IMG/VR virus record: IMGVR_UViG_2645727843_000004
Origin: a virus
Taxonomy: Duplodnaviria > Heunggongvirae > Uroviricota > Caudoviricetes
DNA: 17,802 nucleotides
Reading direction: 5' to 3' (one strand)
The notes beneath the pieces were generated by a model that had not been told where the DNA came from, ran no database searches, and was given only the letters and a program-made list of their open reading frames with translations. Positions 3,212 to 16,320 of the stretch are shown piece by piece. Within the stretch, counting starts at the first letter, position 1; each line of letters opens with the position of its first letter. A program made the position numbers and the translations under genes.

Positions 3212-3754
3212 TTATCGAAATGAATCGTGCATAGGTACATAAAGCATGTGTTCAGCCACGGCTAACCAACCTGCAATACGTTTCTCACATGTGCTGAAAC
3301 ACCATTCCGGGTGAGTACGATTTAAACATTCTGCCATTTTTCTCTTACTCATTCCCCGTCCTTCGTACCTTTGCCGGAGAATATTGATTAGCCCGGGATA
3401 TTCCCCAAGCACCTCACTGATAACGCGATCAATAATCAACGCCTCTGTGTCTGTACAATGTGACAACCAGCTCTTCTGCTTCCCTCTGGTCATATCCCGA
3501 AAAAATGCCTCAAGTTCCGGTTTTTCCAGCCCGGATTTCTTCATGCTGCGTAAAACCTCATTAACTGCTGTTTTCGTCAGCCTTTTCGAAACCAGTAACC
3601 GGTTAAACATATTTCCGGATTTACCCCCACCGATATACGACCACCGCCCCCACATCCGTAATTTCCCCTGGATCCAGACTGCTTCCAGCGTGTTCAGGCG
3701 TAAATGTTCGCCGCTTTTGCCTGTAATTTCCGGATATATCATATTTACGCTCAC
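3212..3754 (-). CDS. Putative late-gene antiterminator Q-like protein
   Basis: 180-aa ORF directly after rusA (GTGA overlap with the rusA stop; alternative ATG at 3742) and directly before a terminator hairpin and the tRNA cluster. Assignment is mainly positional; sequence family not verified. Confidence 0.5.
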   Translation of the reverse strand: MSVNMIYPEITGKSGEHLRLNTLEAVWIQGKLRMWGRWSYIGGGKSGNMFNRLLVSKRLTKTAVNEVLRSMKKSGLEKPELEAFFRDMTRGKQKSWLSHCTDTEALIIDRVISEVLGEYPGLINILRQRYEGRGMSKRKMAECLNRTHPEWCFSTCEKRIAGWLAVAEHMLYVPMHDSFR

Positions 3755-4110
3755 TCACTCTCAATTTTGTAAATCTTCACACCCAGCCGTCCACCAGATA
3801 CTGGCTGACCACGTACAATATTGATTTCATCAAACTGCTCGTCATCAATGAGCACTCCCGCATGCGTCAGCGCATCCAGCGGTGCTTTCAGAATATTGTC
3901 CAGGTCACGACGACGCTTATCCGGTGGCTCTGCAATAATTTTTATTGCCAGCCGTCCGGACAGGCTTAATTTCAGTCGCTGCTGGCGAACAATAAGCGCC
4001 ACTGCCCGGCGATAACGCTCCCCGGCTTTTGATACAAAATATGTGCTGCCACGGCGTCGCCAGTAAGTGTTCACCGTCGGCGGGTAAGGTAAAACCAAAT
4101 CTATGAGCAT
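3751..4110 (-). CDS. rusA: Holliday-junction resolvase RusA
   Basis: 119 aa with the conserved RusA pattern (P.PP..N.Y...., PDKRRRDLDNILKAPLDALTHAGVLIDDEQ, GGRL), which aligns by eye with E. coli RusA. SD AGAGGTGA precedes the ATG at 4110. Confidence 0.9.
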   Translation of the reverse strand: MLIDLVLPYPPTVNTYWRRRGSTYFVSKAGERYRRAVALIVRQQRLKLSLSGRLAIKIIAEPPDKRRRDLDNILKAPLDALTHAGVLIDDEQFDEINIVRGQPVSGGRLGVKIYKIESE

Positions 4111-12673: not shown

Positions 12674-13099
12674 TTAATGCACAGCCAGAGTGTTTCCTGC
12701 CGGGCCACCACGATTCATCTGATCGAACAGAACGATCGCTGATGCAACGAAATCATCAATATCTTTCACCAGCCGTTCCTTCGTCTCTACCAACTCCCGA
12801 AAATAAGCGGAACTGTGGCTGCGCATTCGGGCCACCAGCAGAGGCGGCATTGCTTTTTCGATAGCTGGTAACAGAGCCTGCATTTTTTCAACGGCATCAG
12901 GAGTATCTTTCTTTACCCAGCGGAAAATTTTCTGGGTATTGCGAGCCAGGGCTTCCGGATGGCTGTCGTCATACAGTTCTGGGAACGTCATACCCAACTC
13001 AAAATAAGCCTGGGTTATTCCAGCTGCTGGAACTTTTTCGCCATCAGGACGCGCCCAGGCATTCATCGCCATGCGGATGTGTTCATGCTTGATTTTCAT
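12674..13099 (-). CDS. YdaT-like (CII-position) early regulator
   Basis: 141 aa, MKIKHEHIRMAMNAWARPDGEKVPAAGITQAYFELGMTFPELYDD...; ATGA overlap with the Cro-like gene. Arrangement matches Rac ydaS-ydaT. Confidence 0.6.
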   Translation of the reverse strand: MKIKHEHIRMAMNAWARPDGEKVPAAGITQAYFELGMTFPELYDDSHPEALARNTQKIFRWVKKDTPDAVEKMQALLPAIEKAMPPLLVARMRSHSSAYFRELVETKERLVKDIDDFVASAIVLFDQMNRGGPAGNTLAVH

Positions 13100-13359
13100 G
13101 AATCAACTCCCAGCGCGGGTTGTGTGTTAGCCTGATAGTCAACAGGTATGCCATCGGTTGGGTTGGGGTAAGTACTGCTATCAATCTCGTGCGGGGTCAC
13201 TACCCACCCTGTTGCTTCACACCAGCGTAAAACTTTCCCCCCCGTAAGTTTCGCCCGTCCAGTAATAACATGGCTTACCATCCCTTGGGTTACCCCAACA
13301 ATTTCAGCAAAATCTTTCTGGGTTATACGGGAATGATGCAAATATTCTCCAAGATTCAT
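13096..13359 (-). CDS. Cro-like HTH protein (YdaS/DicC-type)
   Basis: 87 aa with HTH ITQKDFAEIVGVTQGMVSHVITG; SD GAGGTG; divergent from the repressor gene across an operator-bearing spacer. Confidence 0.75.
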   Translation of the reverse strand: MNLGEYLHHSRITQKDFAEIVGVTQGMVSHVITGRAKLTGGKVLRWCEATGWVVTPHEIDSSTYPNPTDGIPVDYQANTQPALGVDS

Positions 13360-13466: not shown

Positions 13467-13967
13467 ATGAAAAGAAAACCCCTGTCAGAGATCGACCTGC
13501 AAGCCGCCCAGAGACTGAAAGAAATCTGGACGACGAAAAAAACTCAACTTGGGTTAACCCAAGAGCGTGCGGCAGAAATTCTGGGTTTTTCGACACAAGG
13601 GGCAGTAAGCCATTATCTAAATGGTCAGACACCTTTAAATCTAGAGGCTGTTATCAAGTTCGCTGGGTTGCTACAAGTTCCGCCTGAGTCAATTAGACCA
13701 GATATGGCAGACTTGTTACGAATTGTAAGGATGTACCCCCAAGAACTGCAGCAGGATAATGTTGTCGCTTTACCCGCAGAGATGGAGCAATCGGAAAACG
13801 AACTTCCGTTTAATATAGAACCTATAGAGCGAGATTTGATCCAGACGTTCAGGGCTTTCCCAAAAGAAGACAAAGAGAAAATGCTTAAGGAAATGAAGGA
13901 GAAAAAAGAATCAATTGAAGAAACCGTTGCGCGGTGGCTAGAGGCGCAAAAAGGTCGTCGCGCCTAA
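13467..13967 (+). CDS. Prophage repressor, RacR/DicA-type (XRE HTH, no S24 peptidase domain)
   Basis: 166 aa with HTH LTQERAAEILGFSTQGAVSHYLNGQ and an acidic/lysine-rich C-terminus; divergent from the Cro-like gene; same strand as the downstream dicB-type operon. Confidence 0.8.
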   Translation: MKRKPLSEIDLQAAQRLKEIWTTKKTQLGLTQERAAEILGFSTQGAVSHYLNGQTPLNLEAVIKFAGLLQVPPESIRPDMADLLRIVRMYPQELQQDNVVALPAEMEQSENELPFNIEPIERDLIQTFRAFPKEDKEKMLKEMKEKKESIEETVARWLEAQKGRRA

Positions 13968-13984: not shown

Positions 13985-14176
13985 ATGAGTACAGTCCTTT
14001 CCCCGATAATTTCAGAATTTGAAACAATCGAACAAGAAAACAGCTATAACGAATGGTTACGCACCAAAGTGGCAGCAAGCCTCGCAGACCCCCGTCCTGC
14101 AATTCCGCATGACGAAGTAATGGCTGAAATGGAAAACCTTATTGCGCAAATAGCTTCGACGAACAGGAGTGAGTAA
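13985..14176 (+). CDS. Putative antitoxin partnered with the downstream ParE/RelE toxin
   Basis: 63 aa, strong SD GAGGAGG; TAATG stop/start overlap with the toxin gene; 17 nt downstream of the repressor stop. Family not assigned. Confidence 0.65.
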   Translation: MSTVLSPIISEFETIEQENSYNEWLRTKVAASLADPRPAIPHDEVMAEMENLIAQIASTNRSE

Positions 14177-14466
14177 TGCTGCCCATTTTATGGCTACCTT
14201 CTGCGCGTGATGATTTGCGTCAGATCGTGGCCTATATTGCCAAGGAAAACCCTCCCGCTGCACGTAGACTAAAAATACGCATTGAAACATCAGTTTTGTC
14301 ACTTTCTGAACACCCTTACCTGTATCCACCAAGCGAAAGAGCTCTAGGCCTTCGTGAGATAGTGACCCATCCTAACTACATAATACTTTACCGAGTAACA
14401 GCATCTAACATCGAGATCGTAAATGTAGTTCACTCACGAAGGCAGTATCCAAACAAAAGCTGTTAA
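14176..14466 (+). CDS. RelE/ParE-superfamily toxin
   Basis: 96 aa: MLPILWLPSARDDLRQIVAYIAKENPPAARRLKIRIETSVLSLSEHPYLYPPSERALGLREIVTHPNYIILYRVTASNIEIVNVVHSRRQYP (ParE/RelE fold signature). Confidence 0.8.
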   Translation: MLPILWLPSARDDLRQIVAYIAKENPPAARRLKIRIETSVLSLSEHPYLYPPSERALGLREIVTHPNYIILYRVTASNIEIVNVVHSRRQYPNKSC

Positions 14467-14481
14467 TCATTCCTACCAACA

Positions 14482-14504
14482 ACCACCTTCGGGTGGTTTT
14501 TTTT
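14482..14504 (+). terminator. Intrinsic terminator ending the repressor-TA operon
   Basis: ACCACC-TTCG-GGTGGT hairpin (14482-14497) followed by T8. Confidence 0.7.
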
Positions 14505-14522
14505 CTTACCTCCAAAAAAAAC

Positions 14523-14564
14523 AATAGCATTACTATTTACACAATAAAATAGCAGTGCTATTGT
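14523..14564 (+). promoter_or_regulatory. Left operator region with PL-like promoter for the dicB-type operon
   Basis: AATAGCATTACTATT (14523-14537) and AATAGCAGTGCTATT (14548-14562); -35 TTTACA (14536-14541), 17-nt spacer, -10 TATTGT (14559-14564). Confidence 0.55.
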
Positions 14565-14740
14565 TTATTCATCACCCACCCACCCCACAGAATGCAGGGC
14601 AATACCTCGAGTTACCCGGCAGTGGCCAGGGGTTAAGTAGCCAGCCCGAGGCGTATGAACATGACGGCGGGAACACTTTGTATAACAGCGCAGCAGGTTT
14701 TTAGTTCCGCGACCCGGCGTTAAGGGTAAATGAGGTCAAC

Positions 14741-14893
14741 ATGGATATGCTCAATCTTGGCAACAACGAATCTCTGGTATGCGGAGTATTCCCCAACCTG
14801 GACGGCACGTTCACCGCGATGACGTATACCAGAAGCAAAACGTTTAAAACGGAAGCTGGCGCGCGTCGCTGGTTAGCAAGAAACTCTGACTGA
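14741..14893 (+). CDS. ydfA: YdfA-like small protein (50 aa), first gene of the dicB-type operon
   Basis: SD GAGG six nt upstream; MDMLNLGNNESLVCGVFPNLDGTFTAMTYTRSKTFKTEAGARRWLARNSD; TGATG coupling to the next gene. Below the ORF-track cutoff. Confidence 0.55.
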   Translation: MDMLNLGNNESLVCGVFPNLDGTFTAMTYTRSKTFKTEAGARRWLARNSD

Positions 14894-15543
14894 TGAGATT
14901 GACGATGGAATTTAAAGATTTACCTCCTTCAATCCAGGAGATTGCAGCACACACACTTCGTCATCGTCTGAACGAACTTGAATTGGAATCGGTAACGAAA
15001 AAAGACACTGATAATATGGCTCGTAATGTGCGCGATGCGTTTACCGGATTGTATTTCTGTGCGTCTATAAATAAACACGACTCAGAGAGTATGGCAAATA
15101 AAATTGCAGAAACGACAGCGCAAAACATCAATACGAAACCAACGGAAGAAGAAATTGATCAGTTTGCTCATGATGCTGGTTTAAAAAACAAGAAAGAAAA
15201 ATCGCCATATGCGGGGAACATGTTTGTTTATGACAATCTCATTAGAATTCGTGGCGAAATTCCGGCGGAATACCTGGCAAGAGTCCATCAGGCATTGCTT
15301 AAAAATTTGGAAACAGAATTATTTGATGGCAACACTAACGGTTTCTTCATGGTATCAGGCCTTGAGAAAGACTGGGATGCAGAAAAACGCTGGAATGTTG
15401 CTACATGGTTATTCAGTAACAGAGCCGCTGCACTGGAAGCTTCGGCATGTATTTGCGGCCTGTTCTTAACAGACCACAAATATAATCTGGATGTGTACAG
15501 TTATATTTACGCTGAACACGGTCCACTCTGGATTGACTGGTAA
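14893..15543 (+). CDS. Hypothetical 216-aa protein; variable cargo in the dicB-type operon
   Basis: Translationally coupled to the ydfA-like gene; no motif I recognise; occupies the slot where K-12 Qin has the short ydfB and ydfC. Confidence 0.6.
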   Translation: MRLTMEFKDLPPSIQEIAAHTLRHRLNELELESVTKKDTDNMARNVRDAFTGLYFCASINKHDSESMANKIAETTAQNINTKPTEEEIDQFAHDAGLKNKKEKSPYAGNMFVYDNLIRIRGEIPAEYLARVHQALLKNLETELFDGNTNGFFMVSGLEKDWDAEKRWNVATWLFSNRAAALEASACICGLFLTDHKYNLDVYSYIYAEHGPLWIDW

Positions 15544-15753
15544 TTATAAGGAAACACCAGCAGGGCCGCGGCGACCAACAGAACGATTAAAATCAATAAT
15601 GCCATTATAAAGGACATTATTTAATTTATCGTCGAATGCTGATTCTGTGAGCCTCAACTCTGAATGAGTTTTTAATAACCCTGATTGCCTGAGTTGATTT
15701 ACCAGGCATTCAATCTGTTTTTCAATAAGCGGATTTCTTTTTTTGTTTGGCAT
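15544..15753 (-). CDS. Hypothetical 69-aa protein, convergent with the 216-aa gene
   Basis: ATG at 15753 with SD GGAGGA 5 nt upstream (MPNKKRNPLIEKQIECLVNQLRQSGLL...); its stop abuts the stop of the 216-aa gene with no terminator between them. Confidence 0.45.
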   Translation of the reverse strand: MPNKKRNPLIEKQIECLVNQLRQSGLLKTHSELRLTESAFDDKLNNVLYNGIIDFNRSVGRRGPAGVSL

Positions 15754-16092
15754 TTTATCCTCCATTGAGGTTCTGGGTTAAAAATGGAGACCAACACGCT
15801 GTCACGTGTGGTCGTGCGCCGGACACGGATAAGAATCCGGTACTGACAGTTTACTGAAAGGATATTTCCCTGAAAAGTCAGGGCATAACGCGAAAGCGTA
15901 CGGCGAAGCTCTTTCCCTTAGAAGGCTTGTCGTTAGATTTCTTCGAACGTGCGCTTCCGGTTGTGGCAATCCGCGAAATGGCGCGGCGGTAAGTATGGCG
16001 GGGTTATTCCTTCCCCAGTTGAGGACACCGGGTTGTCAGGTTGACCATACGCTTAAGTGACAACCCCGCTACAACGCCCTCTGTTATCAATA

Positions 16093-16150
16093 TTCTGGTG
16101 ACATTTGGCGGTATCAGTTTTACTCCGTGACTGCTCTGCCGCCCTTTTTT
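16093..16150 (+). ncRNA. dicF: DicF-like small RNA (ftsZ-targeting sRNA of the dicB operon)
   Basis: TTCTGGTGACATTTGGCGGTATCAGTTTTACTCCGTGACTGCTCTGCCGCCCTTTTTT closely matches my recollection of E. coli DicF, including the GGCGG...CCGCC terminator stem and T-tract; it sits just upstream of dicB, as in Qin. Confidence 0.7.
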
Positions 16151-16320
16151 AAAAGTGAATTTTGTGATGCGGTGAATGCGGCTCAGCACACGCGGAACAG
16201 TTAAAACCAAAAACAGTGTTATGGGTGGATTCTCTGTATCCGGCGTTAATTGTTAACTGGTTAACGTCACCTGGAGGCACCAGGCACCGCATCACAAAAT
16301 TCATTGTTGAGGACGCGATA

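Follow-up and report, generated by a model that had tools for sequence, protein, structure and literature searches.

Exchangeable C-terminal domains linked to convergent small genes in the dicBF operon of Qin-type prophages: a candidate cognate gene pair

The dicBF operon of Qin/Rac-type prophages has a slot, between ydfA and the DicF precursor, whose content varies from one prophage to the next. We analysed this slot in a stretch of 17,802 nucleotides (nt) from IMG/VR record IMGVR_UViG_2645727843_000004 (Caudoviricetes), hereafter the window, in which a Qin-type lambdoid prophage of Escherichia coli has its immunity and early-left region. Here the slot is occupied by a large gene of 216 or 212 amino acids (aa), depending on its start, and a convergent small gene of 69 aa. 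Comparison across prophages reveals that the large protein consists of a conserved N-terminal module (N-module) fused in frame to an exchangeable C-terminal domain (C-domain), and that the small gene is linked to this C-domain and paired with it exclusively. The two genes would represent a single allele, here "type A", of an exchangeable cassette of two genes with a fixed place in the early-left (PL/dicBF) operon, in which the small gene would encode the cognate partner of the C-domain. The reading that we favour, tentatively and by analogy, is that they form a cognate, reciprocally expressed pair, with the small protein an accessory or exclusion-type factor made while PL is off and the early C-domain its modulator. 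The parts of the pair are as follows.

14893-15543, plus strand: large gene, a 216-aa open reading frame (ORF) ending in TAA at 15541-15543; PHROG 2151
14905-15069, plus strand: conserved N-module of about 55 aa, MEFKDLPxSIQ...NVRDAFxGLY, predicted to be helical; delimited by PHROG and HMMER matches
15196-15540, plus strand: C-domain, aa 98-212; delimited by the AlphaFold2 (AF2) model, the Salmonella homologues and linkage
15544-15753, minus strand: small gene, 69 aa plus stop; PHROG 4274, with the same call by the Prokaryotic Genome Annotation Pipeline (PGAP)
15754-15765, minus strand: ribosome-binding region of the small gene, ATGGAGGATAAAATG; from the sequence

Both ORFs are real genes under purifying selection. 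The ratio of nonsynonymous to synonymous substitution (dN/dS) of the small gene has a median of 0.23 over 22 distinct DNA alleles, where the codon-matched antisense frame gives 0.49 and four further frames give 1.06-1.25; the C-domain of the large gene has a ratio of 0.19 over 29 alleles. The minus-strand ORF of the small gene spans 15765 to 15544 (73 aa), and translation from the ATG at 15753 yields 69 aa; a strong Shine-Dalgarno (SD) sequence, GGAGG at 15759-15763, is placed 5 nt ahead of that ATG. Sequestration of this SD by the upstream CTCCAT was considered and rejected, as the pairing is only partly present in the minimum free energy structure and absent from the centroid. The stop codons of the two genes abut (large-gene TAA at 15541-15543, small-gene TTA at 15544-15546), and a terminator scan of 14500-16300 detected no terminator-like site, hence none between PL and dicB. 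At the other end of the large gene, the final base of the ydfA stop codon (TGA, 14891-14893) is the first base of the ATG at 14893, creating a TGATG overlap. The TGATG overlap, the adjacent stops, the strong SD and the missing terminator had all been described in an earlier note on this DNA, and all are confirmed in the sequence. That note also took the 216-aa ORF to be translationally coupled to ydfA. The annotated start is 12 nt further in, at the in-frame ATG 14905 (MEFKDL, 212 aa), according to PGAP in RefSeq genomes and to PHROG 2151, and the product of the large gene is probably this 212-aa form. Since the junction motif TGATGAGATTGACGATGG is seen again in a locus where ydfB is the upstream gene (L005), coupling by termination-reinitiation is plausible, with ATG 14893 or 14905 as the start.

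The modularity of the large protein is evident from its relatives. An exhaustive HMMER search retrieved 35 in total, all of them enterobacterial prophage proteins; many match residues 1 to about 55 only, with unrelated C-termini beyond, and two Salmonella proteins, P0178 and P0175, match residues ~98-195 only. PHROGs 1363, 9419, 6937 and 33007 cover only residues 5 to about 75 of the large protein. The N-module is common to at least 10 C-terminal variants and also occurs in stand-alone proteins of ~65 aa, so that a comparison of the slot across prophages bears out the earlier description of the dicBF slot as a site of variable cargo. In the AF2 model, with a mean confidence (pLDDT) of 64 overall, four helices are followed by a beta-beta-alpha-beta-beta-alpha-beta(-beta) sandwich; the core of the C-domain, the predicted alpha/beta sandwich, reaches 70-79. 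The 69-aa protein is modelled as two helices and soluble (pLDDT 60), with a conserved C-terminal RRGxPAGVxL tail.

The Salmonella relatives carry both members of the pair into another setting. P0178 (220 aa) and P0175 (286 aa, with an inserted HTH_3) have the C-domain at ~33% identity behind a different N-terminus, and their genes lie behind cox in a P2/186-like int-C-cox immunity region that runs into Rac/Qin-type early genes. Convergent to them are small genes called at 64-69 aa, whose products are homologous to the small protein, with 53% and 42% identity and the RRGxPAGVxL tail kept. These small genes overlap the 3' ends of the P0178 and P0175 genes by 11 or 53 nt, and the DNA has diverged.

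Linkage within IMG/VR is close to complete. All 74 loci with the 69-aa gene have a C-domain gene adjacent and convergent, and 74 of the 80 C-domain loci carry the small gene. The remaining six comprise two loci at contig edges, one with a truncated C-domain gene, downstream of which no small gene was detected, and three true losses (L150, L156 and L160). In these three, which have "...WIDWFKG" variants of the large gene, the small gene is reduced to its first four codons (MEDK) and the large gene is intact; databases hold clusters of such "...WIDWFKG" large genes without the small gene that have up to 110 members. In L059/L170 it is the large gene that is frameshifted and the small gene that is intact. 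The earlier note had allowed that the 69-aa ORF might prove absent or non-conserved in related prophages; its retention beside the C-domain gene in the 74 loci, and its occurrence in E. coli, E. albertii and Salmonella, identify it as a real gene instead. Moreover, type A alleles fall into two tight groups by their C-domain and small gene, against which the N-module varies from 46 to 100% identity, and therefore recombination splits the N-module from the C-domain and not the C-domain from the small gene. As a side observation, the three loci with true losses possess a different convergent ORF of ~171 aa (PHROG 1244, CxxC...CxxC) upstream of the MEDK remnant, for example at 3526-4041 on the minus strand of L156.

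Exclusive pairing extends to other variants. A survey of the N-module covered 499 IMG/VR loci, 113 of them non-redundant and analysed by clustering; within these 113, each small-gene type is confined to one C-type, with zero cross pairs. The C-types and their convergent partners are listed here with the number of loci that have the partner.

C0 (this window): 69-aa convergent gene, 33/35, plus one frameshifted copy (C8)
C4 (112 aa): 64-aa convergent gene, 7/8
C5 (179-186 aa): 80-aa zinc-ribbon-like convergent gene, 6/6
C1, C6, C7 and C9: convergent genes of 63, 77, 91, 101 or 73 aa, one type each per variant
C2 and C3: no convergent small gene, 0/26

At least three unrelated small genes found at the slot (types A, B and E) share their start region (ATGGAGGATAAAATG, MEDKM...), and therefore the variable block ends right within the first codons of the small gene, while its left edge lies inside the large gene. 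The small partners of other types that were tested belong to PHROG families of unknown function, and Pfam detected no domain in any tested small partner or large-gene variant.

Neither protein of the window resembles anything characterised. Searches of Pfam, NCBIfam and PADLOC gave zero matches for the 216-aa or the 69-aa protein, including no PADLOC-DB 2.0 family at E <= 1 for either, and the same family search easily picked up the neighbouring PaaA2/ParE pair. The two PHROG matches, 2151 and 4274, are both families of unknown function. Profile searches of PDB sequences were empty or insignificant for both proteins, Foldseek against BFVD returned nothing at E <= 1e-3, and Foldseek against PDB found no match for the 69-aa protein. 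In addition, tblastn of both proteins against 50,697 GenBank phage genomes gave no match at E <= 1, and a scan of GTDB species representatives found zero relatives. Hence the earlier statement that no motif could be assigned to the 216-aa ORF holds through family, profile and fold searches, and the 69-aa protein likewise matches no characterised family. In databases both are called "hypothetical" in all sources, the large one also "Ybl81" in some, and a literature search for ybl81, the WP accessions and the PHROG identifiers found them mentioned in none of the papers searched. Publications on dicBF picture non-conserved genes at the ydfA-DicF position without characterising them (PMC5069750). 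Thus the two genes are already catalogued, as hypothetical proteins and PHROGs, and neither accessory hotspots nor convergent exclusion genes of early operons are new as such. What appears undescribed at the dicBF slot is an array of swappable domains, all joined in frame to one conserved N-module and each having a convergent partner exclusive to it, and the prevalence of the type A allele in enterohaemorrhagic and Shiga toxin-producing E. coli (EHEC/STEC).

Co-inheritance, survival of the unit at deep divergence in Salmonella, exclusive pairing and purifying selection on both genes speak for cognate partners, and how such a pair might work is suggested by its geometry. Under the reading that we favour, the small gene alone would be expressible in an intact lysogen, where PL is repressed, and its product would act as an accessory factor of the exclusion, defence or regulator type. 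When PL fires, transcription would run antisense across the small gene and the large protein would be made, with its early C-domain as a cognate modulator that might provide self-immunity during the prophage's own lytic growth. Reciprocal expression of this kind would be expected of convergent genes that no terminator separates, and the two products would interact physically. The direction of the roles is proposed because of the analogy with a convergent sieB at the same slot and with SieB/Esc logic. It is further favoured because large genes stay intact after loss of the small gene (L150, L156, L160), because PL is active in O157:H7 strain EDL933 with no small-gene TSS (transcription start site) among those listed and without evident harm, and because the small gene is intact beside a frameshifted large gene in L059/L170. 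Taken together, the evidence on direction is not decisive.

Published transcript data set the frame for this proposal. In K-12, DicF is processed from a transcript begun at dicBp upstream of ydfA, with RNase III taking part in processing of the dicBF transcript (PMC10448788); therefore the PL transcript of the window must pass the small gene in antisense to reach DicF. In EDL933, Cappable-seq lists a TSS for the ydfA homologue at 1895862 in six of eight conditions (PMC10469882). This TSS is 7 nt past TTGACC-17-TAAACT and aligns with about position 14571 of the window, whose promoter and leader together take up 14536-14740; the leader is highly conserved relative to EDL933 although the promoter/operator region differs. 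The repressor of the EDL933 prophage is truncated, and the dicBF operon of this defective element appears to be constitutively transcribed. For the large gene (RS09910), no TSS is listed at a distance of 250 bp or less (PMC10469882). An active PL-type TSS with none listed for the small gene would be consistent with reciprocal expression.

Several points weigh against our favoured reading. The pairing pattern is not universal, as C2 and C3 have no convergent partner and the heterogeneous type C1 is without one in 20 of 31 loci. The AF2 models are moderate in confidence, and fold searches with them yielded nothing specific. Neither Pfam nor PHROG searches link the small protein to SieB, and it lacks a membrane segment. 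As a sigma-70 promoter for the small gene, the promoter scan offered nothing convincing: its matches are a weak site at 16256-16229 and TTAACC-18-TAAAAT, overlapping the start codon. Of the TSSs listed for EDL933, none falls within 250 bp of this gene (RS09905) (PMC10469882). Finally, the pairing could be a by-product of adjacency within a recombination block bounded by conserved flanks.

Pursued to its end, this last argument makes the two genes independent morons that are found together only since recombination breakpoints fall in conserved flanks, with no functional coupling between them, an explanation that is possible if somewhat doubtful. The edges of the cassette do match conserved sequence, with the N-module at its left end and the ribosome-binding site, hairpins and DicF precursor at its right end; loci exist in which one gene is gone and its neighbour intact, and many N-module genes have no convergent partner. 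However, Salmonella differs in left flank and phage type, and even so C-domain and small gene remain together and convergent there at 33-53% identity, and not one cross-paired recombinant was found in the 113 loci although the N-module reshuffles freely only ~100 codons away.

A toxin-antidote arrangement reverses the roles of our favoured reading: the early large protein, via its C-domain, would be toxic to the host or kil-like, and the small protein would inhibit it and shield the lysogen from leaky PL activity. The linkage of C-domain and small gene, the deep conservation of the unit and the exclusive pairing would all suit such an arrangement, as would the resemblance of a conserved N-terminus, variable C-terminus and cognate small neighbour to polymorphic toxin-immunity cassettes, and the operon already contains the toxic functions DicF and DicB (PMC5069750). 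We nevertheless consider it unlikely. Large genes persist intact after clean deletion of the small gene, both in L150, L156 and L160 and in the "...WIDWFKG" clusters; EDL933 grows with its PL-type promoter on in six of eight conditions and with no small-gene TSS among those listed (PMC10469882); Pfam, NCBIfam and PADLOC reveal no toxin domain; and the small gene does not share a transcript with the gene that it would counteract. A toxic large protein is thereby indirectly disfavoured, and the antidote role that the earlier note had offered for the small gene, among other options, is the less favoured direction.

The same geometry could instead act in cis. Transcription of the small gene would then collide or form duplexes with PL transcripts and damp leaky read-through into the toxic dicF/dicB, with the peptide of secondary importance. 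The terminator-free convergent geometry is located exactly between PL and dicF, unrelated small genes have a common start region and upstream flank, and RNase III is involved in K-12 dicBF processing (PMC10448788). This role is improbable, however, given purifying selection on the protein (dN/dS 0.23 versus ~1.1 off-frame) and its conservation down to 42% identity despite diverged DNA. In addition, the scan found no small-gene promoter, the TSSs listed for EDL933 include none for this gene (PMC10469882), and K-12 and many other prophages do without a convergent gene.

Least probable is a classical autonomous toxin-antitoxin (TA) addiction module, either of type II or of type I through a hydrophobic alternative-frame ORF that spans the 3' ends of both genes:

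15507-15617, minus strand: 36-aa ORF, MSFIMALLILIVLLVAAALLVFPYNYQSIQSGPCSA

Such a module might be expected from the prophage site beside a genuine PaaA2/ParE pair and from this hydrophobic ORF across the junction, which is retained in most E. coli alleles, but it is largely refuted by anatomy: the pair is not operonic, no toxin or antitoxin match was found in PADLOC, Pfam or NCBIfam, and the cassette always occupies one fixed slot, not varied contexts. As a type I toxin the 36-aa ORF was rejected, as it has stops in two alleles, is absent in Salmonella and shows a dN/dS of ~1.16; it is probably not a gene.

The comparative pattern also permits a bolder proposal than the one made for this pair. 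The slot may be a hotspot of at least eight unrelated pairs of "early effector domain + convergent small partner" built on one N-module, which would amount to a new class of exclusion/self-immunity (or anti-defence/antidote) systems with their halves in opposite phases of lysogeny and lysis; we regard this as possible and speculative. If true, the version in the window is the one that has become fixed in major EHEC/STEC lineages. The cassette is probably used in phage-versus-phage or phage-versus-host conflict.

Its distribution gives the cassette a wider significance. Among 5,426 complete E. coli genomes, 597 have the small gene and 592 the C-domain (~11%), with no more than four copies per genome. 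Carriers are mainly EHEC/STEC, including O157:H7 (EDL933, 86-24, EC4115, Xuzhou21), O26:H11, O111, O145, O103 and O121, and the family is also found in E. albertii, E. marmotae and Salmonella. The carrier prophage of O157:H7 is defective, with truncated repressor, recE and int, and adjoins nleG7. Thus the pair is present in about one in nine complete E. coli genomes, beside DicF and DicB, which bear on cell division, phage resistance and, for DicF, the regulation of EHEC virulence. The cassette may set DicF/DicB output in these pathogens, as transcripts that yield DicF must first cross the convergent gene. Moreover, the comparative pattern supplies both cognate and non-cognate pairs, a ready panel for a possible new conflict system; otherwise, the slot is a well-delimited case of mosaic "dark matter" in prophage early operons.

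The backbone into which the cassette is inserted is a Qin-type dicBF operon, with divergent DicA/DicC-like regulators followed by ydfA, DicF and DicB in an order collinear with K-12. The full gene order is dicC-like, dicA-like, PaaA2/ParE, terminator, PL-like promoter, ydfA, 216-aa ORF, 69-aa gene (minus strand), DicF and dicB, and the flanking features are these.

13096-13359, minus strand: dicC-like gene, a helix-turn-helix (HTH) ORF
13467-13967, plus strand: dicA-like HTH repressor gene, from its HTH ORF
13985-14466, plus strand: PaaA2-type antitoxin (63 aa) and ParE toxin (96 aa), from the family search
14481-14498: strong terminator, a hairpin with a T-run, directly after PaaA2/ParE and upstream of the PL-like promoter
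14536-14564, plus strand: PL-like (dicBp-equivalent) promoter, TTTACA-17-TATTGT, from the promoter scan
14741-14893, plus strand: ydfA-like gene (DUF1391, 50 aa), first gene of the early-left operon; Pfam PF07151, E 1.6e-28
15789-15813 and 15819-15840 (CCGGA...TCCGG), strand unassigned: two adjacent conserved hairpins at the right-hand edge of the variable cassette, from the alignment; fold z = -2.15
16093-16144, plus strand: DicF small RNA (sRNA); Rfam RF00039, 77 bits
16321-16509, plus strand: dicB, encoding the cell-division inhibitor; Pfam PF05358, E 7.6e-39

The start inferred for the PL-like promoter, at about 14571, gives a leader of ~170 nt ahead of ydfA, whose product is 84% identical to K-12 YdfA (tblastn). 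The PaaA2/ParE pair is an insertion between the dicA-like repressor gene and the PL-like promoter, where K-12 Qin is empty. Alignment to K-12 Qin is lost just past the ydfA stop and regained near 15810, which points to a cassette swap in which ydfB/ydfC were replaced. The earlier claim of such a replacement is right with respect to K-12 Qin and does not extend to all prophages, as ydfB is retained ahead of the same large gene in L005 and a ydfC-like gene in L150.

To the right of the cassette, a conserved non-coding stretch of ~330 nt separates the small gene from DicF. The hairpins at 15789-15840 are assigned to the conserved flank of the DicF precursor because they are also present in K-12, which has no small gene, and the hairpin at 15789-15813 shows compensatory substitutions across five loci (the window, L003, L006, L161 and K-12). 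These hairpins might be an RNase III/RNase E processing site of the DicF precursor or a 5' leader of the small gene. The ~280 nt ahead of DicF (~15810-16090) are conserved from K-12 to the Salmonella P2/186-like hybrid prophages. DicF itself is seemingly swapped for another terminator-bearing sequence (CATTGCTGTGTGTAG...) in the Salmonella elements and in a Rac-like phage. Besides that of the window, the regions to which these observations apply are as follows.

L161, 5090-5430: corresponding region
L006, 5850-6160: corresponding region
L397, 3620-3720: corresponding region

Possibly, exchangeable sRNAs of one family occupy the DicF position on a shared precursor scaffold. Elsewhere in the window, the late region of the same prophage contains three tRNA genes (1647-1893) and a match to the STnc100 sRNA (1377-1567, 139 bits), on the minus strand.

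Set against known systems, the cassette shares traits with several and coincides with none. It lacks the anatomy of type II TA systems, as its genes are convergent stop-to-stop and not bicistronic and belong to no recognised TA superfamily. With regard to type I systems, its geometry predicts overlapping antisense transcripts, and the TSSs listed for EDL933 include none on the minus strand here. Polymorphic toxin-immunity cassettes, such as those of contact-dependent inhibition (CDI), Rhs and colicin type, are similar in their fixed N-terminus, exchangeable C-terminus and co-varying small neighbour without cross pairs. However, the partner here is convergent and is missing in C2/C3, the setting is a phage early operon and not a secretion locus, and no secretion/delivery or toxin domain was found in any large-gene variant tested.

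The defence/anti-defence hotspots of temperate phages such as P2 and P4, the accessory-gene hotspots on which Rousset et al. reportedly worked in 2022, likewise combine a fixed slot and conserved flanks with many unrelated small gene sets, and the Salmonella relatives lie directly after cox in a P2/186-like immunity region. The slot described here differs in having no PADLOC match and in that part of its cargo continues the reading frame of a conserved N-module. K-12 Qin (ydfA-ydfB-ydfC-dicF-dicB-ydfD) has the same backbone, namely a DicA/DicC-type switch, ydfA, the DicF precursor, DicF and DicB; the differences are that a 212-aa gene and a convergent 69-aa gene stand in place of ydfB/ydfC and that PaaA2/ParE is inserted before PL.

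Another close analogy is SieB/Esc of Rac, P22 and lambda, for which Ranade and Poteete are said to have described, in 1993, an exclusion factor and a phage-encoded escape function with involvement of an antisense RNA. The molecules themselves are unlike: SieB, with ~190 aa, is a membrane protein, and the 69-aa protein, predicted to be soluble and helical, resembles it in neither sequence nor fold; Esc is an in-frame piece of SieB, whereas the putative partner here is a separate domain fused to the N-module. The likeness is one of arrangement, an accessory gene in the early-left operon that follows ydfA, is convergent, and precedes an sRNA-like element and a division inhibitor. It is seen in the Rac-like phage vB_EcoS-666R9, which has in order a PL leader homologue, ydaG, ydfA, a convergent sieB, a terminator-bearing sRNA-like element, the conserved pre-dicB segment and kil; the position of sieB in locus L397 is as follows.

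L397, 2956-3567, minus strand: sieB, overlapping the stop of the ydfA-like gene

The ydfA/DUF1391 homologue at 2804-2959 of L397 is labelled "head-DNA stabilization protein D" in ON470614 and related vB_Eco phages, which looks like an annotation error. With sieB directly after ydfA and convergent, the slot and orientation of the 69-aa gene are therefore those of an accessory gene annotated as an exclusion gene.

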